Shown here in pieces: positions 26,460 through 54,336 of a stretch of DNA of 64,000 nt; the stretch's first letter is position 1; each line of letters starts with the position of its first letter. The notes beneath the pieces were generated by a model. That model saw only the letters and a program-made list of their open reading frames with translations, was not told the DNA's origin and ran no database searches. The position numbers were made by a program, and so were the translations under genes. Location: assembly GCF_057098645.1 (NCBI RefSeq), contig NZ_CM169472.1, one strand, 5' to 3'.

Positions 26460-27212
26460 ATGAACCTTGAAGCCTTACCAAAATATTACTCCCCAAAATC
26501 TCCAAAACTGAGTGATGACGCACCGGCGACAGGCTCTGGTGGTTTAACAATTACGGATGTAATGGCTGCGCAGGGGATGGTGCAGTCGAAAGCACCGCTT
26601 GGGTTTGCCTTATTCCTGGCAAAAGTTGGCGTTCAGGATCCTCAGTTTGCGATTGAAGGTCTGCTCAATTACGCGATGGCACTGGATAACCCGACATTGA
26701 ACAAATTGAGTGAAGAAATCCGGTTACAGATCATCCCTTACCTTGTGAATTTTGCCTTTGCTGATTATTCCAGGTCTGCGGCAAGTAAGGCTCGCTGTGA
26801 GCATTGTGATGGTACTGGATTTCATAATGTATTGCGCGAGGTGGTGAAACACTCCAGAAGCGGGGAATCTGTTATCAAGGAAGAGTGGGTGAAGGAACTA
26901 TGTCAGCATTGTCATGGTAAGGGAGAAGTCAGCACAGCGTGCAGAGGGTGTAAGGGTAAAGGTATTGTCCTGGATGAAAAAAGAACCCGGCTTCATGGTA
27001 CGCCTGTTTATAAGATTTGTGGGCGTTGCAATGGTAACCGGTTTAGCCGTTTACCAACCACACTGGCGCGGCATCATGTCCAGAAGCTGGTACCTGCCCT
27101 GACGGATTATCAGTGGTACAAAGGATATGCAGATATCATTGATAAACTGGTTACAAAGTGCTGGCAGGAAGAAGCATATGCAGAGACACAATTGAGAAAA
27201 GTGACAAGATAA
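26460..27212 (+). CDS. Late-gene antiterminator Q (Qin QuuQ/YdfT-like, 250 aa, four CxxCxGxG zinc-finger repeats)
   Basis: CEHCDGTG, CQHCHGKG, CRGCKGKG, CGRCNGNR repeats; immediately upstream of a promoter-terminator pair and the lysis genes. Confidence 0.75.
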   Translation: MNLEALPKYYSPKSPKLSDDAPATGSGGLTITDVMAAQGMVQSKAPLGFALFLAKVGVQDPQFAIEGLLNYAMALDNPTLNKLSEEIRLQIIPYLVNFAFADYSRSAASKARCEHCDGTGFHNVLREVVKHSRSGESVIKEEWVKELCQHCHGKGEVSTACRGCKGKGIVLDEKRTRLHGTPVYKICGRCNGNRFSRLPTTLARHHVQKLVPALTDYQWYKGYADIIDKLVTKCWQEEAYAETQLRKVTR

Positions 27213-27918: not shown

Positions 27919-27996
27919 GCAAACCTTGTTTTCGATTATATGCCGAAGATAAATGTTAGTAACGGCATAATAAGTAAATATATAGCTGTGATAGCA

Positions 27997-28495: not shown

Positions 28496-29548
28496 ATGAA
28501 AAATACTGTAAAAATAAACAGTGTTGATTTAATCAACGCTGATTGCCTGCATTTTATTCAGTCCCTGCCTGATAACTCCATTGATCTGATTGTTACCGAT
28601 CCGCCGTACTTCAAAGTGAAGCCCAACGGCTGGGACAATCAGTGGAAAGGGGACGAAGATTACCTGAAGTGGCTGGACCACTGTCTGGCCCAGTTCTGGC
28701 GGGTACTGAAACCAGCCGGAAGCCTTTACCTGTTCTGTGGGCATCGCCTGGCATCTGATATTGAGATCATGATGCGTGAACGTTTCAACGTGCTTAACCA
28801 TATCATCTGGGCGAAGCCGTCCGGACGTTGGAATGGGTGTAATAAAGAAAGTCTGCGCGCATATTTTCCTGCCACAGAGCGCGTTCTGTTTGCTGAACAT
28901 TACCAGGGGCCATATCGCGGCAAAAGTGACGGCTATGCGGCAAAAGAAAGGGAACTCAAACAGCACATAATGGCACCGCTGATATCGTATTTCAGGGATG
29001 CTCGTGCCGAACTGGGTATAACGGCAAAACAAATTGCTGAAGCCACAGGTAAGAAAAATATGGTTTCCCACTGGTTTGGTGCCAGTCAGTGGCAGTTGCC
29101 GAATGAGGCTGACTATCGGAAGTTACAGGCACTGTTTTCCCGTATAGCGGCAGAGAAGTTTCAGGAACAACAACTGGAACAACCACACCACCAGCTGGTG
29201 GCATCTTATGATTCACTGAATCGCAAATATTCTGAATTGCTGGATGAGTTTAAATCTCTCCGGCGCTATTTCTCCGTATCAGTCTCCGTGCCTTATACCG
29301 ATGTCTGGATGCATAAACCCGTTCAGTTCTACCCGGGTAAACATCCGTGTGAGAAACCGGCGGATATGCTCAGGCAAATAATCAATGCCAGTAGTCGACC
29401 TGGTGATCTGGTTGCTGATTTTTTTATGGGATCCGGTTCCACAATAAAAGCAGCAATGGCGCTGGGGCGTCGGGCCTTAGGTGTTGAGCTTGAGTCAGAG
29501 CGGTTTAACCAGACAGTGAAAGAGATAAACGAGCTGGTGGGGAAATAA
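28496..29548 (+). CDS. Orphan DNA methyltransferase (N6-adenine/N4-cytosine class, DPPY motif)
   Basis: LIVTDPPYF catalytic motif and a C-terminal SAM-binding region ([13 protein letters not shown]); no adjacent restriction gene. Confidence 0.8.
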
Positions 29549-29554
29549 TCTGGT

Positions 29555-29577
29555 GGCCACGTCAGGTGGCCTTTTTA
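29555..29577 (+). terminator. Hairpin plus T-tract after the methyltransferase gene
   Basis: ggccacgtcaggtggcc followed by ttttta. Confidence 0.5.
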
Positions 29578-29615
29578 TTTCCATTACACAGCACCCGCAT
29601 CTGCGAGGTGGGGTT

Positions 29616-29831
29616 ATGAAATCCATGGATAAGTTAACAACGGGTGTCGCCTATGGCACCTCAGCAGGTAGTGCCGGTTACTGGTTTTTACAGCTGCTCG
29701 ATAAAGTCACGCCCTCACAGTGGGCAGCAATAGGTGTGCTGGGTAGCCTGGTATTTGGCCTGCTGACGTACCTGACAAACCTTTATTTCAAGATTAAAGA
29801 AGATAAGCGCAAGGCTGCGAGAGGTGAATAA
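29616..29831 (+). CDS. Pinholin, phage 21 S21-like, with dual start (MKSMDK... / MDK...)
   Basis: [71 protein letters not shown] closely matches remembered S21. Confidence 0.85.
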
Positions 29832-30328
29832 TGCCTCCATCATTACGAAAAGCAGTTGCTGCTGCTATTGGTGGCGGAGCAATTGCTATAGCATCAGTGT
29901 TAATCACTGGCCCAAGTGGTGACGATGGCCTGGAAGGTGTCAGCTACATACCATACAAAGATATCGTTGGCGTATGGACTGTATGTCACGGACACACCGG
30001 AAAAGACATCATGCTCGGTAAAACGTATACCGAAGCAGAATGCAAAGCCCTCCTGAATAAAGACCTTGCCACGGTTGCCAGACAAATTAACCCGTACATC
30101 AAAGTCGATATACCGGAAACAACGCGCGGCGCTCTTTACTCGTTCGTCTACAACGTGGGTGCTGGCAATTTCAGAACATCGACGCTTCTTCGCAAAATAA
30201 ACCAGGGCGATATCAAAGGCGCATGTGACCAGCTACGTCGCTGGATATACGCTGGCGGTAAGCAATGGAAAGGCCTGATGACTCGTCGTGAGATTGAGCG
30301 TGAAGTCTGTTTGTGGGGGCAACAATGA
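29831..30328 (+). CDS. SAR endolysin (phage 21 R21-like lysozyme with N-terminal signal-anchor-release helix)
   Basis: N-terminal Gly/Ala-rich SAR helix ([21 protein letters not shown]) followed by a lysozyme domain; start overlaps the holin stop. Confidence 0.85.
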
Positions 30329-30792
30329 GCAGAGTAACCGCGATTATCTCCGCTCTGGTTATCTGCATCATCGTCTGCCTGTCGTGGGCGGTCAATCATT
30401 ACCGTGATAACGCCATCGCCTACAAAGAACAGCGAGATAAAAAAGTCAGTGAGCTGAAGCAGGCGACCGCCACCATTACTGACATGCAGCAGCGCCAGCG
30501 TTCTGCTGATGCACTCGATGCTAAATACACGAAGGAGTTAGCTGATGCGAAAGCTGAAAATGATGCTCTTCGGCGCAAGCTTGATAATGGTGGTCGGGTG
30601 TTCGTCAAAGGAAAATGCCCTGTGCCATCCTCAGCCGAAACCTCCAGCGCCTCCGGCATGGGCAATGATGCCACCGTCGAACTCTCTCCAGTTGCTGGAC
30701 GAAACGTTCTCGGTATCCGGGACGGAATTATCCGCGACCAAACAGCACTGAGAACGCTTCAGGAATACATCAGGACGCAATGCCTTCGATGA
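30325..30792 (+). CDS. Spanin inner-membrane subunit Rz
   Basis: N-terminal TM helix then a coiled-coil periplasmic region; directly after the endolysin. Confidence 0.8.
30545..30751 (+). CDS. Spanin outer-membrane lipoprotein Rz1, embedded in Rz in the +1 frame
   Basis: [21 protein letters not shown] lipobox followed by a proline-rich segment; entirely inside the Rz ORF. Confidence 0.8.
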
Positions 30793-30965
30793 TAGCGATA
30801 ATTTTACTCATCATCCTTCACATCTGGCTCTGTAGACAGGATGGTGATCACTTCTGGAGTGAATCCAGATTAAACATCTCATTGCTGATGCTTGATATTG
30901 AGCATCTTGCGCGCGGTAAGGGGCTGCGTTGAGATAAGAGCCAGTCATTACAAATACCAGGATTT

Positions 30966-30990
30966 AGCCTCGCATTCGCGGGGCTTTTTA
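30966..30990 (+). terminator. Hairpin plus T-tract after the lysis cassette
   Basis: agcctcgcattcgcggggct followed by tttttatt. Confidence 0.5.
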
Positions 30991-31073
30991 TTGCCATTAC
31001 AAAAGCCACTCCCTACAGAGTGGCTTTGATAATGGCTTATACCCTACACGGGATAGCTTAACTGATATCCCTT

Positions 31074-31289
31074 TTAACGGATAAAGGTATTCAAGCCTGA
31101 CACATCATGCGCTGTATCGTCGCCGTATTCCCGTATTAACAGAGACCGTAGCCCGACGGGGAACTCCTTCTGCGCGAGTGTGCGGGAATAATCAAAAACG
31201 ATGCACACCGGGTTTTTACCGCGTTTATGGTTCGCGGGTTTGTCCCTCATGCTCGCCAGTCCTGTGCGGGGGTGGAAGAAACAGGACAC
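31074..31289 (-). CDS. Hypothetical small ORF at the phage right-end region
   Basis: 71-aa ORF with no recognisable features; may not be a real gene. Confidence 0.25.
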   Translation of the reverse strand: MSCFFHPRTGLASMRDKPANHKRGKNPVCIVFDYSRTLAQKEFPVGLRSLLIREYGDDTAHDVSGLNTFIR

Positions 31290-31418
31290 TTACACAGATT
31301 CTTGTGGGCACGATGCTATGCCTTTCTGGATTATCCCGATGCCATTCATGCAAGGTGTTGTATCAGACGTTCGTCAGAGCTGTCAGGCTGACGGGTCCTC
31401 CCGGTGGGGTGGCCTGCC

Positions 31419-31440
31419 ACGGGGCGGGAGCGTCGCGGAA
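31419..31440. other. Candidate cosN (cohesive-end site)
   Basis: acggggcgggagcgtcgcgg resembles lambda cosN ACGGGGCGGCGACCTCGCGG (16 of 20); lies ~186 bp before the small terminase start, as in lambda. Confidence 0.55.
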
Positions 31441-38568: not shown

Positions 38569-38579
38569 AGAGGTGTGGG

Positions 38580-39158
38580 ATGAAGGGGCTTGAGAATGCC
38601 ATCCGTAATCTGAACAGCCTTGATACCCGTATGGTGCCACAGGCCAGCGCATGGGCGATAAACCGTGTGGCACAGAAAGCGGTCTCGGTTGCCACCCGGC
38701 AGGTTGCCGGGAATACCGTTGCGGGAGATAACCAGGTGAAAGGGATCCCCCTGAAACTGGTACGTCAGCGTGTCCGGGTGTTTAAAGCCAGTCCGTCAGG
38801 AAAAATGACGGCCAGGATCCGCGTTAACCGGGGCAATCTGCCCGCCATTAAGCTGGGGACAGCCCGGGTCAGACTGGCCCGGCGTGGTGGAAAACTGCAG
38901 TACCGTGGCAGTGTGCTGAAGGTGGGTAAATATCTTTTCCGGGATGCGTTTATTCAGCAACTGGCGAATGGTCGCTGGCATGTGATGCGGCGTATTGATG
39001 GCAAAAATCGTTACCCCATTGATGTGGTGAAAATCCCGCTTTCCGGACCGCTGACACAGGCATTTGAAGATGCCCGCGACCGCATCATTGCTGCGGAAAT
39101 GCCGAAACAGCTGGGGTATGCACTGAAACAACAACTGAGGTTATGGCTGACCCGATGA
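38580..39158 (+). CDS. Tail completion protein Z (lambda gpZ-like)
   Basis: 192 aa; MKGLENAIRNLNSLDTRMVPQASAWAINRVAQKAVSVATRQVA... matches remembered lambda Z. Confidence 0.8.
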   Translation: MKGLENAIRNLNSLDTRMVPQASAWAINRVAQKAVSVATRQVAGNTVAGDNQVKGIPLKLVRQRVRVFKASPSGKMTARIRVNRGNLPAIKLGTARVRLARRGGKLQYRGSVLKVGKYLFRDAFIQQLANGRWHVMRRIDGKNRYPIDVVKIPLSGPLTQAFEDARDRIIAAEMPKQLGYALKQQLRLWLTR

Positions 39159-39556
39159 ACCGACATACACAAATCCGCCAGGCCGTACTGGCACGCCTTC
39201 GGGAACAGTGTGGAGACAGCGCCACGTTTTTTGACGGGCTTCCGGCATTTATTGATGCGCAGGAACTGCCTGCCGTGGCGGTGTGGCTGAGTGATGCTCA
39301 GTACACCGGAAAAATGACGGATGAAGATGACTGGCAGGCTGTTCTGCATATTGCTGTCTTCATCCGGGCACAGGCACCGGATTCAGAGCTGGATATGTGG
39401 ATGGAGAGCACCATTTTCCCGGCCCTGAATGATATACCGGCACTTTCCGGACTCATCGACACCCTGATCCCTCTCGGTTTTAACTATCAACGTGATAATG
39501 AGATGGCCACCTGGGCGATGGCGGAAATCACGTACCAGATCACGTACACGAATTAA
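39143..39556 (+). CDS. Tail terminator protein U (lambda gpU-like)
   Basis: ...ATFFDGLPAFIDAQELPAVAVWLSDAQYTG ... ELDMWMESTIFPALNDIPALSGL ... ITYQITY parallels lambda U. Confidence 0.85.
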   Translation: MADPMNRHTQIRQAVLARLREQCGDSATFFDGLPAFIDAQELPAVAVWLSDAQYTGKMTDEDDWQAVLHIAVFIRAQAPDSELDMWMESTIFPALNDIPALSGLIDTLIPLGFNYQRDNEMATWAMAEITYQITYTN

Positions 39557-39567
39557 AGGAGGTGGCA

Positions 39568-40311
39568 ATGACCACACCAAATCCACTGGCAAAAACGAAA
39601 GGTGCGGGAACGACGTTCTGGATGTACACCGGCAAGGGCGATGCGTTTGCGAACCCTTTATCGGACACTGACTGGCTGCGTCTTGCGATGGTGAAGGATC
39701 TGCAACCTGGCGAAATGACCGCTGATGCAGAAGATGACACTTATCTCGATGATGAAGATGCAGACTGGAAAACGACAACCCAGGGGCAGAAATCCGTCGG
39801 TGATACTTCGGCGACGCTGGCCTGGCGTCCGGGTGACAGCGGGCAGAAAAAACTGGTTCAGTTGTTCGACTCCGGTGAAGTCTGCGCGTTTCGTATCAAA
39901 TATCCCAACGGCACTGTTGATGTTTTCCGTGGCTGGCTGAGCTCACTGGGTAAAACCATTGCCTCAAAAGACGTGATGACCCGCACAGTGAAAATCAGCG
40001 GTGTGGGGCGTCCGTATCTGGCAGAGGAAGGCACTGAAACAGTGAGCGTTACCGGGCTGACGGTGGCACCGGCATCTGCCAGTGTAAAAGTGGGAGCAAC
40101 CACCACGCTGACCTTTACAGTAAAACCTGACGGAGCCAGTGACAAAGCGATCAGTGTGCATTCGACAGATCCACAGACTGCCACGGTGACCCTGAACGGG
40201 CTTGTGGCCACGGTGAAAGGCGTGAAGCAGGGCAGTGTCAGCATTGTGGGCATGACTTCTGACGGCGATTTTGTGGCAGTGGCTGCGGTGGCTGTCAGCG
40301 CCGCAGGTTAA
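39568..40311 (+). CDS. Major tail protein V (lambda gpV-like, C-terminal Ig-like domain)
   Basis: ...KGAGTTFWMYTGKGDAFANPLSD ... YLDDEDADWKTTTQGQKSVGDTS ... matches lambda V; AAGGAGG RBS before the ATG at 39568. Confidence 0.9.
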   Translation: MTTPNPLAKTKGAGTTFWMYTGKGDAFANPLSDTDWLRLAMVKDLQPGEMTADAEDDTYLDDEDADWKTTTQGQKSVGDTSATLAWRPGDSGQKKLVQLFDSGEVCAFRIKYPNGTVDVFRGWLSSLGKTIASKDVMTRTVKISGVGRPYLAEEGTETVSVTGLTVAPASASVKVGATTTLTFTVKPDGASDKAISVHSTDPQTATVTLNGLVATVKGVKQGSVSIVGMTSDGDFVAVAAVAVSAAG

Positions 40312-40331
40312 CAGGACGATACTCATCATTT

Positions 40332-40356
40332 GCCCCGGTTATCCGGGGCTTTTTTG
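40332..40356 (+). terminator. Intrinsic terminator after V
   Basis: gccccggttatccggggc followed by tttttt. Confidence 0.7.
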
Positions 40357-40371
40357 CAGGTGGAGAACATG

Positions 40372-40758
40372 ATGTTTCTGAAACAGGGCACGTTTAATTA
40401 TGAAAAGCAGTCCGTGGTGCTCAGTGAGCTGTCCGGGCTGCAGAGAATTGAATATCTGGCGTTTGTTCAGCAGCGAACGGCAAAGTTTGATGCCGAAGAG
40501 GGAGAACTGCCGGAGGCTGAACGACAGATTGCTTTTCTGCGGATGGGGATGGATATCAATGCCTGGCTGGTTTCCCGCTCACTGTGGAATGCGGAACAGT
40601 CTCAGGATGTTGAGACGCTTTGCGCATCCGTTATTACAACATGGTCGTATGATGCCCTGGGAGCGGGGGCGGAGATGGTTCTGTCGCTGAGCGGTATGGG
40701 AGCCATTGAGAATGCCGGGGATTTGGAGCATGAGGTGCTGACGCCGGAAAAGTCCTGA
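40372..40758 (+). CDS. Tail assembly chaperone G (lambda gpG-like)
   Basis: MFLKQGTFNYEKQSVVLSELSGLQRIEYLAF... parallels lambda G. Confidence 0.85.
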   Translation: MFLKQGTFNYEKQSVVLSELSGLQRIEYLAFVQQRTAKFDAEEGELPEAERQIAFLRMGMDINAWLVSRSLWNAEQSQDVETLCASVITTWSYDALGAGAEMVLSLSGMGAIENAGDLEHEVLTPEKS

Positions 40759-41096
40759 CGCGGGAAATGCAGTTTGTCATGCGGCTTGCCCGGGAGTTCC
40801 GGCGGGCAGACTGGCGGCGGATGCTGTCGGAAATGTCGGCCACTGAGCTTGGTGAGTGGGGCGATTATTTCCGGATGCAGAGCTTCAGTGATGTCTGGAT
40901 GGATGCGCAGTTTGCCTCGCTGAAGGCATTGATCGTGAGAATGGTGTCCGGCAGCAGTGATGCTGCGGTGGCTGATTTCAGCCTTTTACCGGAAGAGAAC
41001 GGGATACCGGAGCGAACGGACGAAGAACTGATGCATCTTGGAGAAGGTATTTCCGGAGGTGTGCGTTATGGACCAGATAGCCAACCTGGTCATTGA
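40745..41096 (+). CDS. gpT-like segment, expected to be made only as a G-T fusion by programmed -1 frameshift near the end of G
   Basis: Open -1 frame continues from before the G stop (40756..40758) to 41096; candidate slip region ccggaaaag at 40744..40752; exact slip site not resolved. Confidence 0.5.
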
Positions 41097-44000
41097 TTTG
41101 GGGATTGATGCGGCAGAGTTTAAAAATGAAATTCCCCGTATCAAAAACCTTCTGAATGGTGCCGCCAGCGATGCAGAACGGTCTTCTGCCCGTATGCAGC
41201 GTTTTATGGAGCGTCAGACTCAGGCCGCCCGGCAGACAACGCAGGCGGCTTCTTCGGCTGCAACAGCCGCCTCCGTCCATGCGCAGACGGTGGAGAAGAA
41301 CGCACAGGCTCATGAACGCATGGCCCGCGAGGTGGAGAAAACCCGCCAGCGCATGGAGGCGCTGAGCCAGAAAATGCGCGATGAACAGGCGCAGGCCATG
41401 GCTCTGGCGGAGGCTCAGGATAAAGCGGCTGCTGCGTTTTATCGTCAGATTGACAGTGTGAAACAGGCCAGTGCGGGGCTGCAGGAATTACAGCGTATTC
41501 AGCAGCAGATCCGACAGGCCAGAAACAGTGGCGGGATTGGTCAGCAGGATTATCTGGCGCTGATTTCTGAGGTTACGGCGAAAACCCGTGTTCTTACACA
41601 GGCTGAGGAAGAGGCTACCCGACAGAAAGTGGCGTTTATCCGTCAGCTTAAAGAGCAGGCAACCCGCCAGAATCTTTCTTCTTCTGAGTTGCTTCGTGCT
41701 AAGGCTGCCCAGCTGGGGGTAAGCAGTGCTGCAGAAGTGTATATCCGCAAAATGGAGCAGGCAGGAAAAGCCACGCATTCGCTGGGTCTGAAAAGTGCAG
41801 CGGCCCGCCAGGAGATAGGCGTTCTGATAGGTGAACTGGCTCGCGGCAATTTAGGTGCGCTGAGGGGATCCGGGATAACGCTGGCTAACCGTGCCGGATG
41901 GATAGACACACTGATGTCACCGAAAGGCATGATGCTGGGCGGGGTTATTGGCGGTATTGCCGCGGCCGTCTATGGTCTGGGTAAAGCCTGGTATGATGGT
42001 CAGAAGGAGGGGGAAGAATTTAACCGCCAGTTGTCGCTGACGGGGCATTATGCCGGAGTCACTGCCGGGCAGCTGTGGACGCTCAGTCGTGCTATTTCCG
42101 GGAATGGTATTACGCAACATGCTGCAGCCGGTGCGCTGGCTCAGGTGGTGGGGAGTGGTGCATTTCGTGGAAACGATATCGGTATGGTGGCGAGAGCTGC
42201 CGCACAGATGGAGCGATCGGTTGGCCAGTCGGTCAGCGATACCATAAATCAGTTTAAGCGGCTGAAGGATGATCCTGTAAATGCCGCGAAGGCTCTGGAC
42301 AATGAGCTGCATTTTCTTACTGCCACTCAGCTTGAGCAGATACGCGTCCTTGGGGAACAGGGGCGGTCCAGTGATGCGGCACGGATAGCCATGTCTGCAC
42401 TGGCAGAGGAAACCGGTCGGCGTACTGCGGATATTGATAATAACCTCAATGCGCTGGGCAGTACGCTGAAGTATCTGTCTGATTTATGGAGTCGTTTCTG
42501 GGATGCGGCCATGAATATTGGTCGTGAAGACTCGCTGGATGAACAGATTTCCGCTTTACAGGAGAAAGTGTCGCAGGCGAAAAGACTCCCCTGGACGGCA
42601 TCATCTTCTCAGGTTGAGTACGATCAGCAGCGTCTTAACGAGCTTCAGGAGAAAAAACGCCAGAAGGATTTGCAGGATGCAAAAGAGCAGGCAGAGCGGA
42701 ATTATCAGGAGCAACAGAAACGCCGTAATGCTGAAAATGCTGCACTGAACCGGATGAATGAAACGGAAGCAGCACGACATCAGCGTGAAATTGCGCGTAT
42801 TAATGCCATGCAGTACGCCGATCAGGCTGTCAGGGATGCGGCGATACAACGTGAAAATGAACGTTACGAGAAAGCCCTGGCATCCGGTAAGAAAAAAACA
42901 CGCGAACCCCGTAATGATGAGGCCACCCGGTTATTGCTGCAGTACAGTCAGCAACAGGCACAGGTGGAAGGACAGATTGCTGCTGCCAGACAGTCAGCAG
43001 GCATTGCCACGGAAAGGATGACAGAAGCGCATAAACAGCTTCTGGCTCTGCAGCAGCGCATCAGCGACCTGGACGGGAAAAAACTGACGGCAGATGAAAA
43101 GAGTGTGCTGGCCCGTAAAGATGAACTGATTCAGGCACTGACGCTGCTGGATGTAAAACAGCAGGAGCTTCAGAAACAGACGGCACTCAACGAGCTGAAG
43201 AAAAAAACAATTCAGCTGACCAGTCAACTGGCTGAAGAAGAGCGCGCTCAGCGTCAGCAACATGACCTGGATATCGCCACGGTGGGTATGGGTGATCAGC
43301 AGCGGCAGCGATATCAGGTACAACTGAGTCTTCGCCAGAAATACCAGCAACAGCTGGAACAGTTGAGGCGGGATAGTGAGCAGAAAGGAACATATAACAC
43401 GGATGACTACAGAAAGGCCGAGCAGGCGCTGACGGAGAGCCTGAACCGACAACTGAATGAGAATCGCCGTTACTGGCAACAGCTTGAAGTTGTGCAGGGT
43501 AACTGGAAAAACGGAGTCCTGCGTGCATTTCAGGATTTTACCGTGGATGCAGATAATACGGCAGGAACAGCAGAACAGGTGTTCTCGTCAGCCTTCAGCA
43601 ACATGGGAAATGGCCTGGCAACTTTTGTCACTACCGGCAAACTCAATTTCAAATCCTTCACCTCTTCTGTGCTGTCAGATATGGCGAAAATCCTGGCGCA
43701 GGCAACCATGATGAAATCGATAAAAGGGATTGGCAGTGTACTGGGATTTGATCTCAGCAGCCTTTCCCTGAATGCCAATGGGGGGATTTATCAGTCTGCT
43801 GATTTGAGTCGTTACAGTGGCACGGTGGTTAACCGTCCGACGTTTTTTGCTTTTGCAAAAGGCGCGGGTGTGATGGGGGAAGCGGGACCTGAAGCCATTC
43901 TGCCACTGCGTCGTGGTGCTGACGGTAAGCTGGGGGTTGTGGCGGATATTGGTGGTTCAGGTATGGCGATGTTTGCCCCGCAGTACAACATCGAGATCAA

Positions 44001-44133
44001 TAACGATGGCACGAACGGGCAGATAGGTCCGGCTGCCCTGAAGGTGGTTTATGACCTTGGGAAAAAAGCGGCAGCGGACTTTATGCAACAGCAGGCCCGT
44101 GATGGTGGTCGGTTAAGTGGAGCATATCGGTAA
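41068..44133 (+). CDS. Tail tape measure protein (gpH-like)
   Basis: ~1020-aa coiled-coil-rich protein between G-T and M; GGAGG RBS before the ATG at 41068. Confidence 0.88.
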   Translation: MDQIANLVIDLGIDAAEFKNEIPRIKNLLNGAASDAERSSARMQRFMERQTQAARQTTQAASSAATAASVHAQTVEKNAQAHERMAREVEKTRQRMEALSQKMRDEQAQAMALAEAQDKAAAAFYRQIDSVKQASAGLQELQRIQQQIRQARNSGGIGQQDYLALISEVTAKTRVLTQAEEEATRQKVAFIRQLKEQATRQNLSSSELLRAKAAQLGVSSAAEVYIRKMEQAGKATHSLGLKSAAARQEIGVLIGELARGNLGALRGSGITLANRAGWIDTLMSPKGMMLGGVIGGIAAAVYGLGKAWYDGQKEGEEFNRQLSLTGHYAGVTAGQLWTLSRAISGNGITQHAAAGALAQVVGSGAFRGNDIGMVARAAAQMERSVGQSVSDTINQFKRLKDDPVNAAKALDNELHFLTATQLEQIRVLGEQGRSSDAARIAMSALAEETGRRTADIDNNLNALGSTLKYLSDLWSRFWDAAMNIGREDSLDEQISALQEKVSQAKRLPWTASSSQVEYDQQRLNELQEKKRQKDLQDAKEQAERNYQEQQKRRNAENAALNRMNETEAARHQREIARINAMQYADQAVRDAAIQRENERYEKALASGKKKTREPRNDEATRLLLQYSQQQAQVEGQIAAARQSAGIATERMTEAHKQLLALQQRISDLDGKKLTADEKSVLARKDELIQALTLLDVKQQELQKQTALNELKKKTIQLTSQLAEEERAQRQQHDLDIATVGMGDQQRQRYQVQLSLRQKYQQQLEQLRRDSEQKGTYNTDDYRKAEQALTESLNRQLNENRRYWQQLEVVQGNWKNGVLRAFQDFTVDADNTAGTAEQVFSSAFSNMGNGLATFVTTGKLNFKSFTSSVLSDMAKILAQATMMKSIKGIGSVLGFDLSSLSLNANGGIYQSADLSRYSGTVVNRPTFFAFAKGAGVMGEAGPEAILPLRRGADGKLGVVADIGGSGMAMFAPQYNIEINNDGTNGQIGPAALKVVYDLGKKAAADFMQQQARDGGRLSGAYR

Positions 44134-44462
44134 TGGAGACGTTTCACTGGAAAGTGCGCCCGGATATGAATGTGGTATCAGAGCCGAAAGTGGTGACAGT
44201 GAAGCTGGGCGATGGTTATGAACAGCGTCGTGCGGCGGGACTGAATAACCAGTTGTCGACTTACAGCGTGACGATACGTGTTCGTAAATGTGAACACCCA
44301 TCTTTAAAAGCCTTTCTGGAACGGCACGGTGGCGTCCGTGCATTTCAGTGGACGCCACCTTATGACTGGAAACCGATTAGGGTGGTTTGTCGTAAATGGT
44401 CGGCAAGCGTGGGGGCGCTGTGGGTAACCATAACGGCAGATTTTGAACAGGTCGTGGCATAG
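44133..44462 (+). CDS. Minor tail protein M (lambda gpM-like)
   Basis: 109 aa, METFHWKVRPDMNVVSEPKV... Confidence 0.85.
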   Translation: METFHWKVRPDMNVVSEPKVVTVKLGDGYEQRRAAGLNNQLSTYSVTIRVRKCEHPSLKAFLERHGGVRAFQWTPPYDWKPIRVVCRKWSASVGALWVTITADFEQVVA

Positions 44463-44471
44463 GAGGCTCTG

Positions 44472-45170
44472 ATGCAGGATATTCCACAGGAAACACATCA
44501 TGAGACGACACGCCTCACTCAGTCAGCCCAGGTGGTGCTCTGGGAAATCGATCTGACAGAGGTCGGTGGTGAACGTTATTTTTTCTGTAATGAGCAGAAC
44601 GAAAAAGGTGAGCCGGTTACCTGGCAGGGGCGGCAGTATCAGGCATACCCCATTCAGGGGACGGGATTTGAACTGAATGGCAAGGGCAGTGCTGCCCGTC
44701 CGACACTGACGGTTTCTAACCTGCACGGCATGGTCACCGGGATGGCGGAAGACCTGCAGAGTCTGGTCGGCGGAACGGTGGTCAGGCGTAAGGTTTACGC
44801 CCGTTTTCTGGATGCGGTGAACTTCGTCAACGGAAACAGCGACGCCGATCCGGAGCAGGAGGTGATCAGCCGCTGGCGCATCGAGCAGTGCAGCGAACTG
44901 AGTGCGGTCAGTGCCTCCTTTGTGTTGTCCACACCGACGGAAACGGATGGTGCCGTTTTTCCGGGGCGCATCATGCTGGCCAACACCTGCACCTGGACCT
45001 ATCGCAGTGATGAGTGCGGTTATCACGGTCCGGCTGTCGCGGATGAATATGATCAGCCGACGTCCGATATCACGAAGGATAAATGCAGCAAATGCCTGAG
45101 TGGCTGTAAGTTCCGCAATAATGTCGGCAACTTTGGCGGCTTCCTTTCCATTAACAAACTTTCGCAGTAA
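44472..45170 (+). CDS. Minor tail protein L (lambda gpL-like)
   Basis: 232 aa with a C-terminal Cys cluster (CSKCLSGCKF). Confidence 0.85.
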   Translation: MQDIPQETHHETTRLTQSAQVVLWEIDLTEVGGERYFFCNEQNEKGEPVTWQGRQYQAYPIQGTGFELNGKGSAARPTLTVSNLHGMVTGMAEDLQSLVGGTVVRRKVYARFLDAVNFVNGNSDADPEQEVISRWRIEQCSELSAVSASFVLSTPTETDGAVFPGRIMLANTCTWTYRSDECGYHGPAVADEYDQPTSDITKDKCSKCLSGCKFRNNVGNFGGFLSINKLSQ

Positions 45171-45175
45171 ATCCC

Positions 45176-45919
45176 ATGACAGAGACAGAATCAGCGATTC
45201 TGGCGCACGCCCGGCGATGTGCGCCAGCGGAGTCGTGCGGCTTCGTGGTGAGAACGCCGGAAGGGGAAAGATATTTTCCCTGCGTGAATATCTCCGGTGA
45301 GCCGGAGGATTATTTCCGGATGTCGCCGGAGGACTGGCTGCGGGCAGAGATGCAGGGTGAGATTGTGGCGCTGGTCCACAGCCACCCCGGTGGCCTGCCC
45401 TGGCTGAGTGAGGCTGACCGGCGGCTGCAGGTGCAGAGTGATTTGCCATGGTGGCTGGTCTGCCGGGGGGCGATTCATAAATTCCGCTGTGTGCCGCATC
45501 TTACCGGGCGGCGCTTTGAGCACGGGGTGACGGATTGTTACACGCTGTTCCGGGACGCTTACCATCTGGCGGGGATTGAGATGCCGGATTTTCATCGTGA
45601 GGATGACTGGTGGCGTAACGGCCAGAATCTCTATCTGGATAATCTGGAGGCCACAGGACTGTATCAGGTGCCGTTGTCATCAGCACAACCGGGTGATGTG
45701 CTGCTGTGCTGTTTTGGTTCATCGGTGCCGAATCATGCCGCCATTTACTGTGGTGACGGCGAGCTGCTGCACCATATTCCTGAACAACTGAGCAAACGAG
45801 AGAGGTATACAGACAAATGGCAGCGACGCACACACTCCCTCTGGCGTCACCGGGCATGGCACGCATCTGCCTTTACGGGGATTTACAACGATTTGGCCGC
45901 CGCATCGACCTTCGTGTGA
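45176..45919 (+). CDS. Tail assembly protein K (lambda gpK-like, JAB/MPN plus NlpC/P60 domains)
   Basis: JAB-like HSHPGG motif and an NlpC/P60-like Cys/His region. Confidence 0.85.
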   Translation: MTETESAILAHARRCAPAESCGFVVRTPEGERYFPCVNISGEPEDYFRMSPEDWLRAEMQGEIVALVHSHPGGLPWLSEADRRLQVQSDLPWWLVCRGAIHKFRCVPHLTGRRFEHGVTDCYTLFRDAYHLAGIEMPDFHREDDWWRNGQNLYLDNLEATGLYQVPLSSAQPGDVLLCCFGSSVPNHAAIYCGDGELLHHIPEQLSKRERYTDKWQRRTHSLWRHRAWHASAFTGIYNDLAAASTFV

Positions 45920-46458
45920 AAACGGGGGCTGAAGCCATCCGCGCACTGGCCACACAGCTCCCGGCGTTTCGTCAGAAACTGAGCGACGGCTGGTATCAGG
46001 TACGGATTGCCGGGCGTGATGCAGGCGAAAATGAATTATCAGCCCGTCTTAATGAACCGCTGGCAAATGGTGCTGTGATCCATATCGTGCCGCGTCTGGC
46101 AGGAGCCAAAAGTGGCGGTGTGTTTCAGGCTGTGCTGGGGGCGGCTGTTATGGCGGTTGCTATATGGATGCCGGGGGTAGGAATTATGGCGAGTAATCTG
46201 CTGTTTTCTCTCGGTGCCAGTATGACGCTTGGCGGTGTTGCACAGATGCTGGCCCCTAAACCCAAAACCCCCCGCACACAGACAACGGATAACGGCAAAC
46301 AGAACACCTATTTTTCTTCACTGGATAATATGGTTGCCCAGGGCAATGTCCTGCCCGTTCTGTACGGTGAAATGCGTGTGGGGTCGCGGGTGGTATCTCA
46401 GGAGATCAGCACGGCAGATGAAGGTGATGGTGGTCAGGTTGTGGTGATTGGTCGCTGA
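45817..46458 (+). CDS. Tail assembly protein I (lambda gpI-like)
   Basis: MAATHTLPLASPGMARICLYGDLQRFGRRIDLRVKTGAEAIRALATQLPAFRQKLSDGWYQVRIAGRD... near-identical to remembered lambda I; overlaps the K 3' end. Confidence 0.88.
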   Translation: MAATHTLPLASPGMARICLYGDLQRFGRRIDLRVKTGAEAIRALATQLPAFRQKLSDGWYQVRIAGRDAGENELSARLNEPLANGAVIHIVPRLAGAKSGGVFQAVLGAAVMAVAIWMPGVGIMASNLLFSLGASMTLGGVAQMLAPKPKTPRTQTTDNGKQNTYFSSLDNMVAQGNVLPVLYGEMRVGSRVVSQEISTADEGDGGQVVVIGR

Positions 46459-46518
46459 TGAAAAATGTTTTATGTGAAACCGCCTGCGGGCGGTTTTGTC
46501 GTTTATGGAGCGTGACGA

Positions 46519-49500
46519 ATGGGTAAAGGCAGCAGTAAGGGGCATACCCCGCGCGAAGCGAAGGACAACCTGAAATCCACGCAGTTGCTGAGTGTGATTG
46601 ATGCCATCAGTGAAGGGCCGGTTGAAGGTCCGGTGGATGGATTAAAAAGCGTGCTGCTGAACAGTACGCCGGTGCTGGACAGTGAGGGGAATACCAACAT
46701 CGCCGGTGTCACGGTGGTGTTCCGGGCTGGTGAGCAGGAGCAGACTCCGCCGGAGGGATTTGAATCCTCCGGCTCCGAGACGGTGCTGGGTACGGAAGTG
46801 AAATACGACACGCCGATCACCCGCACCATCACGTCGGCAAACATCGACCGTCTGCGCTTTACCTTCGGTGTACAGGCACTGGTGGAAACCACCTCAAAGG
46901 GTGACAGGAATCCGTCGGAAGTCCGTCTGCTGGTTCAGATACAACGTAACGGTGGCTGGGTGACGGAAAAAGACATCACCATTAAGGGCAAAACCACCTC
47001 GCAGTATCTGGCCTCGGTGGTGGTGGGTAGCCTGCCGCCGCGCCCGTTTAATATCCGGATGCGCAGGATGACGCCGGACAGCACCACAGACCAGCTGCAG
47101 AACAAAACGCTCTGGTCGTCATACACCGAAATCATCGATGTGAAACAGTGCTACCCGAACACGGCACTGGTCGGCGTGCAGGTGGACTCGGAGCAGTTCG
47201 GCAGCCAGCAGGTGAGCCGTAATTATCATCTTCGCGGGCGCATTCTGCAGGTGCCGTCGAACTATAACCCGCAGACGCGGCAATACAGCGGTATCTGGGA
47301 CGGAACGTTAAAGCCAGCATACAGCAACAACATGGCCTGGTGTCTGTGGGATATGCTGACCCACCCGCGCTACGGCATGGGGAAACGTCTTGGTGCGGCG
47401 GATGTGGACAAATGGGCGCTGTATGTCATCGGCCAGTATTGCGACCAGTCGGTGCCGGACGGTTTTGGCGGCACGGAGTCGCGCATCACCTGTAACGCTT
47501 ACCTGACCACACAGCGTAAGGCGTGGGATGTTCTCAGTGATTTCTGCTCGGCGATGCGCTGTATGCCGGTATGGAACGGGCAGACGCTGACGTTCGTGCA
47601 GGACCGACCGTCGGATAAGGTGTGGACCTATAACCGCAGTAATGTGGTGATGCCGGATGATGGCGCGCCGTTCCGCTACAGTTTCAGCGCCCTGAAGGAC
47701 CGCCATAATGCCGTTGAGGTGAACTGGATTGACCCGAATAACGGCTGGGAGACGGCGACAGAGCTTGTGGAGGACACGCAGGCCATTCTCCGTTACGGTC
47801 GTAACGTCACGAAGATGGATGCCTTTGGCTGTACCAGCCGGGGGCAGGCACACCGCGCCGGGCTGTGGCTGATTAAAACGGAGCTGCTGGAAACGCAGAC
47901 TGTGGACTTCAGCGTGGGCGCAGAAGGGCTTCGCCATGTACCGGGCGATGTCATTGAAATCTGCGATGATGACTATGCGGGTATCAGCGTCGGCGGGCGC
48001 GTGCTTGCGGTAAACAGCCAGACCCGGACACTGACGCTCGACCGTGAAATCATGCTGCCATCCTCCGGAACCACGCTGATAAGCCTGGTTGACGGAAATG
48101 GCAATCCGGTCAGCGTGGAGGTCCAGTCCGTCACCGACGGCGTGAAGGTGAAAGTGAGCCGTGTTCCTGACGGCGTTGCCGAATACAGCGTGTGGGGGCT
48201 GAAGCTGCCGACGCTGCGCCAGCGCCTGTTCCGCTGCGTGAGTATCCGTGAGAACGATGACGGCACGTATGCCATCACCGCCGTGCAGCATGTACCGGAG
48301 AAAGAAGCCATCGTGGATAACGGGGCGCACTTTGACGGTGACCAGAGCGGCACGGTGAATGGTGTCACGCCGCCAGCAGTGCAGCACCTGACCGCCGAAG
48401 TCACTGCAGACAGCGGGGAATATCAGGTGCTGGCGCGATGGGACACACCGAAGGTGGTGAAGGGCGTGAGCTTCCTGCTCCGTCTGACCGTAACAGCGGA
48501 TGACGGCAGTGAGCGGCTGGTCAGCACGGCCCGGACGACGGAAACCACTTACCGCTTCACACAACTGGCGCTGGGGAACTACAGGCTGACAGTCCGGGCA
48601 GTAAATGCGTGGGGGCAGCAGGGCGATCCGGCGTCGGTATCGTTCCGGATTGCCGCACCGGCAGCGCCGTCGCGGATTGAGCTGACGCCGGGCTATTTTC
48701 AGATAACCGCCACGCCGCATCTTGCGGTTTATGATCCGACGGTACAGTTTGAGTTCTGGTTCTCGGAAAAGCGGATTGCGGATATCAGGCAGGTTGAAAC
48801 CACAGCACGCTATCTTGGCACGGCGCTGTACTGGATAGCCGCCAGTATCAATATCAAACCGGGCCATGATTATTACTTTTATATCCGCAGTGTGAACACC
48901 GTTGGCAAATCGGCATTCGTGGAGGCTGTTGGTCAGCCGAGTGATGATGCATCCGGTTATCTGGATTTTTTCAAAGGCGAGATAGGGAAAACCCATCTGG
49001 CTCAGGAGCTGTGGACGCAGATTGATAACGGTCAGCTTGCGCCTGACCTGGCTGAAATCAGGACGTCCATTACGGATGTCAGCAATGAAATCACGCAGAC
49101 CGTCAATAAGAAACTGGAAGACCAGAGTGCTGCAATTCAGCAGATACAGAAGGTTCAGGTTGATACAAATAATAACCTGAACAGCATGTGGGCTGTGAAG
49201 CTGCAGCAGATGCAGGACGGACGCCTTTATATCGCGGGTATTGGTGCCGGTATTGAGAATACCCCTGACGGCATGCAGAGTCAGGTGCTGCTGGCGGCGG
49301 ACAGGATTGCGATGGTTAATCCTGCGAATGGCAACACAAAACCGATGTTTGTTGGTCAGGGCGATCAGATATTCATGAACGACGTGTTCCTGAAACGCCT
49401 GACGGCTCCCACCATTACCAGCGGTGGAAATCCGCCGGCATTTTCCCTGACACCAGACGGAAAGCTGACCGCTAAAAATGCGGATATCAGCGGTAATGTG

Positions 49501-50001
49501 AATGCAAATTCAGGGACGCTCAACAATGTCACGATTAATGAAAACTGTCAGATTAAGGGGAAACTGTCAGCCAATCAGATTGAAGGCGATATTGTCAAAA
49601 CGGTCAGCAAGTCTTTCCCCTGCACGAACAGTTATGCCAGTGGCACCATCACGGTAAGAATCAGTGATGATCAGAAATTTGACCGGCAGGTCATGATACC
49701 GCCAGTGTTATTCCGCGGTGGTAAGCATGAGAATTTCAACAGTAATAACCAACAGTCATACTGGTATTCAACCTGCCGGTTAAGAGTGACCCGCAATGGT
49801 CAGGAGATTTTTAAGCAGTCCACGACGGATGCTCAGGGCGTATTTTCCTCAGTTATAGATATGCCTGCCGGACAGGGGACGCTGACACTGACATTCACCG
49901 TATCTTCATCAGGAGCGAATAACTGGACACCAACAACCAGTATCAGCGATCTGCTGGTTGTGGTGATGAAAAAATCCACAGCAGGTATCAGTATCAGCTG
50001 A
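46519..50001 (+). CDS. Central tail fiber / host specificity protein J (lambda gpJ-like)
   Basis: 1160-aa ORF following I; size, position and fibronectin-like repeats. Confidence 0.9.
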
Positions 50002-50018
50002 ATTTTATAACCCAGAAC

Positions 50019-50043
50019 GGGCGTCAGAAATGACGCCTTTTTT
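50019..50043 (+). terminator. Intrinsic terminator after J
   Basis: ggcgtcagaaatgacgcc followed by ttttttatt. Confidence 0.7.
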
Positions 50044-50067
50044 ATTGCAGAAAAGCGAGAGGTAATT

Positions 50068-50667
50068 ATGCGTAAACTTTATGCCGCCATTTTGTCCGCA
50101 GCCATTTGTCTGGCCGTATCCGGTGCGCCTGCATGGGCGTCTGAACATCAGTCCACGCTGAGCGCGGGGTATCTTCATGCCCGGACGAACGTTCCCGGCG
50201 GTGATGATCTGAACGGGATTAACGTGAAATACCGTTATGAGTTTACGGACACACTGGGGATGGTGACGTCGTTCAGCTATGCAGGAGACAAGAATCGCCA
50301 GATTACCCGTTACAGCGATACCCGCTGGCATGAAGATTCCATTCGTAACCGCTGGTTCAGCGTAATGGCGGGGCCGTCTGTGCGCGTGAATGAATGGTTC
50401 AGCGCGTATGCGATGGCGGGTGTGGCTTACAGCCGTGTGTCGACTTTCTCCGGGGATTATCTCCGCGTAACTGACAACAAGGGGAAAAAGCACGATGTGC
50501 TGACCGGAAGTGATGACGGTCGCCACAGCAACACGTCTCTGGCGTGGGGAGCTGGCGTGCAGTTTAACCCGACCGAATCCGTGGCCATTGATGTCGCTTA
50601 TGAAGGCTCCGGCAGTGGTGACTGGCGCACTGACGGTTTCATCGTGGGTGTCGGTTATAAATTCTGA
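50068..50667 (+). CDS. lom: Lom outer-membrane beta-barrel protein (Ail/Lom family moron)
   Basis: Signal peptide and beta-barrel ending ...GVGYKF; position after J as in lambda. Confidence 0.88.
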
Positions 50668-50695
50668 TTAGCCAGGTAACACAGTGTTATGACAG

Positions 50696-50720
50696 CCCGC
50701 CGGTTCAGGCGGGCTTTTTT
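50696..50720 (+). terminator. Intrinsic terminator after lom
   Basis: gcccgccggttcaggcgggc followed by tttttt. Confidence 0.7.
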
Positions 50721-50725
50721 GTGGG

Positions 50726-53700: not shown

Positions 53701-53755
53701 CGCGGAAAACACCGTCAAAAACATCGCATTTAACTATATTGTGAGGCTTGCATAA
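50726..53755 (+). CDS. Side tail fiber protein (Stf-like) with a long Ala/Ser/Thr-rich repeat region and C-terminal GAHTHS repeats
   Basis: 1009 aa; residues ~120-470 are low-complexity repeats; C-terminal [20 protein letters not shown] tail-fibre repeat motifs. Confidence 0.85.
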
Positions 53756-54336
53756 TGGCATTCAGAATGAGTGAACAACCACGGACCATAAAAATTTATA
53801 ATCTGCTGGCCGGAACTAATGAATTTATTGGTGAAGGTGACGCATATATTCCGCCTCATACAGGTCTGCCTGTAAACAGTACCTATATTGCACCGCCAGA
53901 TATTCCGGCTGGTTTCGTGGCTGTTTTCAACAGTGATGAGTCATCGTGGCATCTCGTTGAAGATCATCGGGGTAAAACGGTTTATGACGTGGCTTCCGGC
54001 GACGCGTTATTTATTTCTGAACTCGGTCCGTTACCGGAAAATGTTACCTGGTTATCGCCGGAAGGGGAGTTTCAGAAGTGGAACGGCACAGCCTGGTTGA
54101 AGGATACGGAAGCAGAAAAACTGTTCCGGATCCGGGAGGCGGAAGAAACAAAAAACAACCTGATGCAGGTAGCCAGTGAGCATATTGCGCCGCTTCAGGA
54201 TGCTGCAGATCTGGAAATTGCAACGGAGGAAGAAATCTCGTTGCTGGAAGCATGGAAAAAGTATCGGGTATTGCTGAACCGTGTTGATACATCAACTGCA
54301 CCTGATATTGAGTGGCCAGCAGCACCTGTAGGATAA
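53755..54336 (+). CDS. tfa: Tail fiber assembly protein (Tfa)
   Basis: 193 aa following and coupled to stf; C-terminal ...[23 protein letters not shown]... Confidence 0.85.

Follow-up and report, generated by a model that had tools for sequence, protein, structure and literature searches.

A lysis cassette with a phage 21-family pinholin and SAR endolysin and HK620-type spanins in a lambdoid prophage

Lysis by way of a pinholin, a SAR endolysin and a spanin is textbook phage biology. Pinholins of the S21 type form heptameric pinholes of ~2 nm, by which the membrane is depolarised while cytoplasmic endolysin is not released (PMC9636201). For the outer-membrane component of the spanin, Kongari et al. 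2018 describe an 'HK620' o-spanin family, which includes HK620 and SPN9CC, separate from a 'Lambda' family to which lambda and phage 21 both belong (PMC6139136). Several described phages combine these parts in different ways. Phage 434 and the DLP12 prophage carry S434/essD and rrrD, the product of the latter being known from a crystal structure (RrrD, PDB 4ZPU), followed by lambda-type Rz/Rz1 of 153 and 60 aa and then by bor on the opposite strand. HK620 carries lambda-type S and R with an HK620-type spanin, whereas SPN9CC has an HK620-type spanin and an R21-like SAR endolysin with an unrelated 67-aa holin. Lambda itself has an unrelated class I holin with three transmembrane domains (TMDs) and a cytoplasmic transglycosylase with no SAR domain.

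We compared these systems with the lysis genes of a prophage contained in a 64,000-nucleotide stretch of DNA, referred to here as the window. The cassette lies at precisely the position that an earlier note on this DNA had given for it, 29616-30792, where the first S start codon begins at 29616 and the Rz stop codon ends at 30792. It consists of S (71/68 aa), R (165 aa) and Rz (155 aa), with Rz1 embedded in the last of these, and the genes overlap tightly: the S stop and R start share TAATG, and the R stop and Rz start share ATGA. Family assignments for S, R, Rz and Rz1 all score far above curated cut-offs; NCBIfam holds no specific model for S, Rz1 or the downstream reading frame orf50, and gave only sub-threshold matches for R and Rz. 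The features discussed below are as follows.

26460..27212, plus strand: late antiterminator of the Q family, 250 aa (PHROG 127 'anti-termination protein Q-like', E=2.9e-108; Ayreon annotation, antitermination protein Q)
28496..29548, plus strand: DNA methyltransferase (Pfam PF01555, E=2.2e-42; PADLOC MTase_II, E=1e-152)
29555..29581, plus strand: intrinsic-terminator-like hairpin, GGCCAC-GTCAG-GTGGCC followed by TTTTTATTT (terminator scan, RNA fold, terminator annotated at the equivalent place in Ayreon)
29616..29831, plus strand: S71, antiholin, the longer of the two products of the pinholin gene with its dual start, 71 aa (identity 71/71 to phage 434 S and K-12 EssD)
29625..29831, plus strand: S68, the pinholin proper, 68 aa from Met4 (second ATG at codon 4; similar annotation in phages 21 and 434)
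29831..30328, plus strand: R, SAR endolysin, GH24 lysozyme, 165 aa (Pfam PF00959, 154.7 bits, E=1.8e-45; PDB 4ZPU, E=6e-110; PDB 3HDE, E=4e-109)
30325..30792, plus strand: Rz, i-spanin, 155 aa (Pfam PF03245, E=8e-29; PHROG 13, E=5e-75; 151/155 identical to SPN9CC Rz)
30526..30572, no strand assigned: dual-coding stretch of Rz and the Rz1 N-terminus MRKLKMML (sliding identity; BLAST alignment ends at 30572)
30545..30751, plus strand: Rz1, o-spanin lipoprotein, 68 aa (Pfam PF06085, E=3.8e-21; PHROG 3198; 67/68 identical to SPN9CC; frame check)
30780..30932, plus strand: orf50, conserved 50-codon reading frame (PHROG 11822, E=9e-38)
30966..30995, plus strand: intrinsic-terminator-like hairpin closing the cassette, 8 pairs (6 G-C) followed by TTTTTATT (terminator annotated at the equivalent place in Ayreon)
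38574..54336, plus strand: lambda-order tail block Z, U, V, G, T, H, M, L, K, I, J, lom, stf, tfa (lambda and phage 21 proteins as tblastn queries; megablast)

The holin gene begins Met1-Lys2-Ser3-Met4, with GAGGTGGGG before it and start codons at 29616 and 29625 on either side of Lys2; the genes of phages 21 and 434 are annotated alike, and the dual start claimed by the earlier note is thus real. S scores 121 bits against Pfam model PF04971, 'Bacteriophage P21 holin S' (Phage_holin_2_1; cut-off 26, E=2e-35), and shares 61 of 71 residues with S21 of phage 21 (OL657228), while BLASTP returns no alignment between it and lambda S. Its identification as a class II holin of the S21 family, rather than one of lambda type, is confirmed by these sequence comparisons. 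Within that family, its DNA is ~95-100% identical to 434 in 60-nt windows versus ~74% to S21, which places it by sequence as the 434/DLP12 allele. By hydropathy, TMD2 is strongly hydrophobic and above threshold; TMD1 is weak, below threshold, and SAR-like in its richness in Gly, Ala and Ser. The TMD2 motif G40xxxS44xxxG48 is kept, with G40, S44 and G48 unchanged from S21 and changes nearby at positions 47 and 49 only. The ten differences from S21 are I7L, S8T, I11V, W27L, Q30K, S32T, L47F, F49L, R61K and R64K; because 10 of 71 residues differ from the protein that has been studied, lysis timing may differ too. A 92-aa, GTG-initiated extension of S (29553..) was rejected, as its start lies inside the terminator hairpin and it is absent from 434 and phage 21.

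The endolysin is closer still to known proteins. R is identical to R21 (PDB 3HDE) at 160 of 165 positions and to RrrD (PDB 4ZPU) at 162 of 165, that is, 97-98% to two solved structures of SAR endolysins, and it has the catalytic triad E35/D44/T50. Its first 30 residues are those of R21, and the Gly/Ala-rich, weakly hydrophobic stretch at the N-terminus is the predicted SAR helix. A BLASTP comparison with lambda R yields E=2.1. When S and R are aligned with both reference pairs, the check that the earlier note had proposed, each matches its phage 21 counterpart closely and bears no resemblance to that of lambda; the sequence evidence confirms R as a SAR endolysin of the R21 type. Given how nearly identical it is to R21 and RrrD, its release from the membrane would depend on the proton-motive force (PMF) and be followed by refolding to the active form. 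A canonical lambda-type system, in which a holin makes large holes for a cytoplasmic endolysin, has in common with this locus only where it lies in the late operon and an Rz N-terminus of the lambda family, the first 31 residues of which are identical to those of lambda. We give that reading practically no credence, given the lack of any lambda-like holin or endolysin in these alignments, the PF04971 match, an S with two TMDs and not three, and the N-terminal SAR helix of R where lambda R has none.

The spanin genes proved to be a different matter. Rz has an N-terminal TMD at residues 1-24 by hydropathy, and Rz1 lies wholly within it in the +1 frame with AAGGAG 7 nt upstream, so that the embedded gene reported by the earlier note is present. 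Rz1 shows a putative signal peptide by hydropathy, the lipobox VVGC19-S-S with a residue other than Asp at +2, Cys27 and a proline-rich core. The spanin cysteines are conserved, Rz Cys98/Cys153 corresponding to lambda Rz C99/C152 and Rz1 Cys27 to lambda Rz1 C29. The same embedded architecture occurs in lambda, whose Rz is of the same family as the window Rz, and, in the +1 frame, in the HK620-family spanins (HK620, SE1, SPN9CC and PS119 gp15; Kongari et al. 2018). In Ayreon and in WWCOL-256, the one PGAP-annotated relative examined, embedded Rz1 is left without annotation.

The earlier note had further held that Rz1 is of the phage 21 type rather than the lambda type, and this does not stand. 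Phage 21 and lambda are identical to each other at 149 of 153 Rz positions and 59 of 60 Rz1 positions; the two have nearly identical spanins, so a separate '21 type' of spanin does not exist. The window Rz shares 91/152 residues (60%) with phage 21 and 94/152 with lambda, which makes it marginally closer to lambda, and the window Rz1, 68 aa long versus 60, shares 29/58 (50%) with phage 21 and 28/58 with lambda. Identity to the spanins of SPN9CC, a P22-like phage, is by contrast 97-99%. The window Rz matches that of HK620 at 143 of 155 positions, and the embedded Rz1 reading frame of HK620 differs from the window Rz1 at 2 of 68 residues, as read from the sequences and not counted by a tool. By sequence, then, the window Rz/Rz1 pair is of the HK620/SPN9CC type, belonging with the published 'HK620' o-spanin family, and Rz1 falls outside the phage 21/lambda allele that makes up the 'Lambda' family. 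A uniform phage-21-type cassette, in which S, R and the embedded Rz1 were grafted together onto a lambda-type structural module, accords with the clear S21/R21 membership of S and R and with the first ~250 nt of Rz, where identity to phage 21, 434 and lambda is 88-95%. The divergence of the rest of the spanin from an allele that phage 21 and lambda practically share, within the same published families, together with the match to SPN9CC and HK620, makes that reading highly improbable; its Rz/Rz1 part is refuted by these sequence comparisons.

The change of allegiance within the spanin can be located. The dual-coding stretch is nearly invariant across spanin alleles, and past its end alignable homology to the lambda/phage 21/434 allele is gone, as judged from BLAST end points. 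The cdtI phage, which has S, R and 5' Rz in common with the window, switches to a lambda-type spanin at ~30576. We tentatively suggest that this stretch of ~40 nt, because it is nearly invariant, may serve as a preferred joint of homologous recombination at which C-terminal spanin modules are swapped. A map of informative sites in R and Rz shows agreement with 434 at 35 of 35 sites up to 29997, a mixed section from 30032 to 30411, and agreement with SPN9CC at 19 of 19 sites from 30428. Joints lie near 29600, at roughly 30000-30428, and at 30572. Phage 434/DLP12 shares the dual start, the Shine-Dalgarno sequence, the overlaps between genes and the opening ~100 nt of Rz, with 94.9% nucleotide identity over 29600-30572. 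Phage 21 likewise has the same families, gene order, MKSM start, overlaps and SAR domain. As read from its sequence, the cassette is a patchwork of an S of the 434/DLP12 kind, an R common to phage 21, 434 and SPN9CC, spanins of the HK620/SPN9CC kind, and orf50, which is shared with HK620, Sf6 and epsilon34.

The lambda-like tails described in the earlier note are indeed there. The order from Z to tfa is kept, and all 14 lambda tail proteins find colinear matches by tblastn, at 93% identity for L, 97% for K, 81% for I, 83% for J and 94% for tfa, with weaker matches of 50-56% for Z, U, V and M, 32-38% for G and T, and 25% for H. Against phage 21 proteins, the tail tip scores 94% for L, 96% for K, 82% for I and 95% for J, so that L-K-I-J resembles phage 21 at least as closely as lambda (J, 95% vs 83%; megablast, 92-94% to each). 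Phage 21 itself carries lambda-type tail genes by annotation, and the presence of 21-type lysis genes beside lambda-type tails is therefore no signature of mosaicism; this weighs further against the idea of a graft. The earlier note was right that the prophage is a modular mosaic, but the contrast between lysis and tail genes on which it relied is not evidence for it. Mosaicism shows instead at the joints of the cassette and in the head genes, which are not those of lambda. Terminase A (25%) and the portal protein B (21%) give only distant tblastn matches, and the window has no tblastn match to lambda nu1, W, C, D, E, FI or FII. The lambda-type head and packaging module is absent, its place taken by a DUF1441 small terminase and a capsid fused to a ClpP-like protease, whereas phage 21 has lambda-like heads. 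HK620 and SPN9CC are P22-like podophages; the window prophage is of the lambda-tailed siphophage type.

The surroundings of the cassette also differ from those of its relatives. Directly 5' of it stands the DNA methyltransferase gene, which is outside the lysis function and holds the site occupied by tRNAs in phage 21 and by nmpC in 434/DLP12. Hairpins flank the lysis unit on both sides in the terminator scan, the first 35 nt upstream of S and the second, 3' of orf50, the top score of that scan. Folding of the S leader (29545-29650) returned the terminator hairpin together with a short stem in which the Shine-Dalgarno sequence is paired; the leader folds no better than shuffled sequences (z=-0.99), which leaves the masking hairpin without statistical support, and for this reason we make no claim on regulation of the S71:S68 ratio. 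An Rfam scan of 26000-32200 at E<=1 found no known RNA element in or beside the cassette, only sub-threshold chance matches to ST7-OT4_3, the Trp and Leu leaders, and STnc560. A 'putative late gene regulator' annotated in Ayreon (corresponding to ~31313-31615 of the window) was rejected as a gene, having no PHROG match and a sequence that looks non-coding.

Downstream, where phage 21 and 434/DLP12 have bor, the window has orf50. Its start overlaps the end of Rz, including the stop codon, by 13 nt, and its product has an N-terminal hydrophobic helix. The reading frame accompanies the Rz 3' end in 44 phage records irrespective of their Rz1 family, and one record names it 'Rz2'; in a diverged Klebsiella phage, a 45-aa reading frame persists at this place and in this frame. 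That orf50 encodes a small, uncharacterised inner-membrane protein, which serves as a fifth component of the lysis cassette or modulates it, is a tentative suggestion, to which we assign a rather low probability.

A close relative of the whole is phage Ayreon (MF807953), whose cassette is 99.7% identical and whose genome is 96-98% identical to the prophage over ~36 kb, with the same gene order. Ayreon is reported to integrate into prfC (PMC5764929). The window prophage adjoins yjjG, both thus lying at the yjjG-prfC end of the chromosome; a search for att sites by exact repeats found only a 14-mer (12609/55730). The two differ beside the integrase, where the window has a dCTP deaminase and Ayreon an unrelated gene of 2.2 kb, and in the distal side tail fibre. 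We consider the region very probably the complete late lysis cassette of an E. coli lambdoid prophage of the Ayreon/cdtI kind, and its similarity to a viable phage indicates that it is apparently functional. Identical S and an R matching at 162 of 165 positions occur in DLP12, a defective prophage, so an intact sequence is not in itself proof that the cassette serves to release phage. The cassette might instead survive as a remnant, domesticated or cryptic, in the manner of essD-rrrD-rzpD/rzoD of DLP12, and be kept by the host for vesicle, biofilm or envelope functions and not for the release of phage; the DLP12 lysis module has reportedly been linked to production of outer membrane vesicles, and matches to the S-R part turn up in nearly all E. 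coli genomes, 5160 of 5426. We judge this improbable, however, since the integrase, repressor, replication, Q, terminase, head and tail genes of the prophage are intact, as are all four lysis reading frames with their overlaps and key residues, and since the relative at 96-98% identity is an inducible, plaque-forming phage.

For an active lysis cassette, a course of events can be proposed from the literature on S21/R21 and Rz/Rz1 (PMC9636201, PMC6139136). The Q-family protein presumably drives late transcription across the cassette; antiterminated transcripts would read through the hairpin at 29555 into S, R, Rz/Rz1 and orf50, whose overlapping genes would be expressed as a single unit with coupled translation. 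S68 would act as the pinholin and S71 as the antiholin, its extra Lys2 delaying exit of TMD1 from the membrane. Sec would export R, which its SAR helix at the N-terminus would keep anchored in the inner membrane and inactive. When lysis is triggered, TMD1 of S68 would leave the bilayer, TMD2 would assemble into small heptameric pinholes and the proton-motive force would collapse, whereupon the SAR helix of R would leave the membrane and the enzyme refold around E35/D44/T50 to cut murein. Last, a complex of Rz in the inner membrane and Rz1, as an outer-membrane lipoprotein, would fuse the two membranes. Pinhole size, dependence on the proton-motive force, SAR release and spanin fusion are all attributed to this locus by homology.

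The cassette is ordinary and already known: the full cassette occurs in 1165 of 5426 complete E. coli genomes, and its sequence is in GenBank, nearly so in Ayreon and at 100% identity in several E. coli chromosomes. The value of the comparison lies mostly in correct annotation, in that 'phage-21-type' is valid for S and R only, while the spanin is of the HK620 type. Because phage 21 and lambda share one spanin allele, Rz/Rz1 are useless for telling 21-like from lambda-like cassettes. The locus illustrates how holin, endolysin and spanin reassort independently, with HK620-type Rz/Rz1 found behind lambda S/R in HK620, behind another holin in SPN9CC and behind S434/R21 in the prophage described here.

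The interval 29616-30792, which the earlier note had read as a phage-21-type lysis cassette in a lambda-tailed mosaic prophage, encodes four tightly packed plus-strand genes, and the ORF list and raw sequence show the boundaries it gave to be exact.

29616..29831, plus strand: S, holin gene, 71 aa, with a second in-frame ATG at 29625 giving 68 aa; Pfam PF04971, 'Bacteriophage P21 holin S', bit score 121 with a cut-off of 26.
29831..30328, plus strand: R, endolysin gene, 165 aa, start overlapping the S stop (TAATG); PF00959, 155 bits.
30325..30792, plus strand: Rz, i-spanin gene, 155 aa, start overlapping the R stop (ATGA); PF03245, 101 bits.
30545..30751, plus strand: Rz1, o-spanin gene, 68 aa, in the +1 frame and wholly within Rz, with AAGGAG 7 nt upstream; PF06085, 75 bits.

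All four proteins score far above curated Pfam cut-offs, with PHROGs in agreement, and the dual start of S and the embedding of Rz1 are both as previously described. Terminator-like hairpins are found at both ends of the cassette (29555-29571 and 30966-30985). Omission of the embedded Rz1 from annotation is common: the gene, at 30545-30751 in the window, is unannotated both in the Ayreon GenBank record and in the PGAP annotation of WWCOL-256, a near-identical E. coli genome (loci L005, 30625-31092, and L001, 6826-7293).

Holin and endolysin were aligned with their counterparts from the annotated genomes of phage 21 (OL657228) and lambda. S is identical to phage 21 S at 61 of 71 positions and has no alignment to lambda S in BLASTP, while R matches phage 21 R at 160 of 165 positions and lambda R only at E=2.1. 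A canonical lambda-type lysis system is thereby refuted, and the assignment of S and R to the phage 21 type holds; neither is closer to canonical holin or endolysin families than to S21/R21. Against solved structures, R shows 160/165 identity to PDB 3HDE and 162/165 to RrrD (PDB 4ZPU); its N-terminal 30 residues, the SAR helix, are exactly those of R21, and the catalytic triad E35/D44/T50 is kept. The closest relatives of S lie elsewhere, as all 71 residues are shared with phage 434 S and with EssD from DLP12, a cryptic prophage of K-12. Nucleotide identity of the S gene to 434, taken in 60-nt windows, is about 95-100%, versus only about 74% to phage 21, with the 434 homology starting at 29600, just 5' of the S Shine-Dalgarno sequence. 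Matches to S occur in 438 phage records, Stx phages among them at about 80%.

A uniform phage-21 cassette would require the spanins to follow S and R, and for Rz and Rz1 this is refuted. Rz is identical to its phage 21 counterpart at 91/152 positions and to that of lambda at 94/152; for Rz1 the values are 29/58 and 28/58. Phage 21 and lambda themselves carry almost a single spanin allele (Rz 149/153, Rz1 59/60 identical), and the description of Rz1 as of phage 21 rather than lambda type is therefore meaningless. Far closer are the spanins of the P22-like Salmonella phage SPN9CC (Rz 151/155, Rz1 67/68) and of HK620 (Rz 143/155; 2 differences over the 68 residues of the embedded Rz1 ORF, read by eye rather than counted by a tool). 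In the classification of Kongari et al. (2018, PMC6139136), the i-spanins of these phages all belong to one 'Lambda Rz' family, with o-spanins of lambda, phage 21 and cdtI in family 'Lambda' and those of HK620, SE1 and SPN9CC in family 'HK620'. Because of these published families and the SPN9CC and HK620 identities, we assign the window Rz1, by sequence, to the HK620 family.

When the full sets of structural proteins from lambda and phage 21 were searched against the window by tblastn, the lambda-like tail genes reported previously were recovered as a colinear block at 38574-54336, at 25-97% identity to lambda: Z 50%, U 54%, V 55%, G 32%, T 38%, H 25%, M 56%, L 93%, K 97%, I 81%, J 83%, lom 45%, stf 84% (first 320 aa) and tfa 94%. 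By sequence, close likeness begins only at L. The tail genes of phage 21 are annotated as lambda-type too, and the window proteins match them as well (L 94%, K 96%, I 82%, J 95%); nucleotide identity to phage 21 is 92-94% across 44469-50046, and megablast to lambda gives similar values. Phage 21 itself thus pairs S21/R21-type lysis genes with lambda-type tails, so that such a pairing alone shows no mosaicism. Mosaicism does show at the joints within the cassette and in the non-lambda head genes, of which only gpA and gpB match lambda, weakly.

31608-37890, plus strand: head and packaging module, comprising a small terminase (DUF1441), a large terminase of the gpA family (700 aa, 25% to lambda A), a portal protein (21% to lambda B) and a fusion of a ClpP-like protease with the major capsid protein.

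Several neighbouring features deserve description.

14244-15851, minus strand: anti-phage dCTP deaminase (PADLOC dCTPase, E=2.4e-164), adjoining the integrase gene (12853-14091).
27212-29548, plus strand: about 2.4 kb of cargo between the late antiterminator gene Q and the lysis genes, with two ORFs of 141 and 67 aa (PHROG 4748 and PHROG 331 respectively, both unknown) and an N6/N4 DNA methyltransferase of 350 aa.
30780..30932, plus strand: 50-codon ORF, ATG overlapping the Rz stop (ATGCCTTCGATGA); PHROG 11822, function unknown.

In the deaminase position Ayreon has an unrelated 2.2-kb gene and other E. coli relatives an AIPR-family gene, and the site looks like a slot whose defence gene varies. 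The Q-to-lysis cargo has terminator-like hairpins at 27996 and 29555, and its position is taken by tRNAs in phage 21 and by nmpC in 434 and DLP12. The 50-codon ORF, with a hydrophobic helix at its N-terminus, is found in 44 phage records at the 3' end of Rz, irrespective of Rz1 family, including Sf6 (gp65), epsilon34 (gp67), HK620, CUS-3 and mEp460, and is named 'Rz2' in HF4s; a diverged Klebsiella phage (~78% nucleotide identity) retains a 45-aa ORF there, in an unchanged frame and likewise ending in ...ARGKGLR. The interval of about 650 nt that separates the cassette terminator from the small terminase gene (30950-31607) has no convincing ORF, and the 'putative late gene regulator' annotated there in Ayreon has no PHROG match. 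The Ayreon authors expect the cos site to lie upstream of the small terminase gene, no more than ~1 kb away; the window/Ayreon megablast alignment is interrupted between window positions 31424 and 31583, and the interval differs.

The prophage starts in the E. coli chromosome just past yjjG, at the integrase gene (12853). Ayreon, whose reported integration site is prfC and whose lysogens are inducible by UV and mitomycin C (PMC5764929), is 96-98% identical across about 36 kb, and 99.7% in the cassette. A domesticated remnant like DLP12 is unlikely, given that the surrounding Ayreon-like prophage is complete. The cassette is most likely functional, because its ORFs, overlaps, lipobox, spanin cysteines and catalytic residues are all intact. 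By analogy with characterised homologues (PMC9636201; PMC6139136), S68 pinholin and S71 antiholin would build up in the inner membrane while Sec-exported R is held tethered and inactive by its SAR helix; pinhole formation would collapse the PMF, freeing R to refold and degrade murein, and Rz-Rz1 would then fuse the inner and outer membranes.

This is an ordinary element, already described; the earlier observation is confirmed in part, and its interpretation likewise has partial support. Of 5426 complete E. coli genomes, 1165 cover the segment 29600-30950 to at least 80%, at least eight carry it at 100% identity and 5160 match some part of it; the HK620-type distal half is present in 2122. A map of informative sites, 434 versus SPN9CC, locates the breakpoints. 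The window follows 434 at 35/35 sites in 29834-29997, intermixes 434-like and SPN9CC-like sites in 30032-30411, and follows SPN9CC at 19/19 sites from 30428 onward. Alignment to the lambda/phage 21/434 allele stops at 30572, where cdtI diverges as well. The 40 nt at 30526-30565, which code for Rz and for the Rz1 N-terminus MRKLKMML, keep 97-100% identity across the alleles compared (lambda, 434, SPN9CC and HK620), whereas their flanks diverge. We infer that the dual-coding stretch 30526-30572 may be a favoured recombination joint, one that looks to have been created by the dual-coding constraint. In HK620 this spanin allele lies behind S and R of the lambda type, and in SPN9CC behind a different small holin and an R21-like endolysin; since one allele follows such different partners, holin, endolysin and spanin evidently reassort independently of one another.
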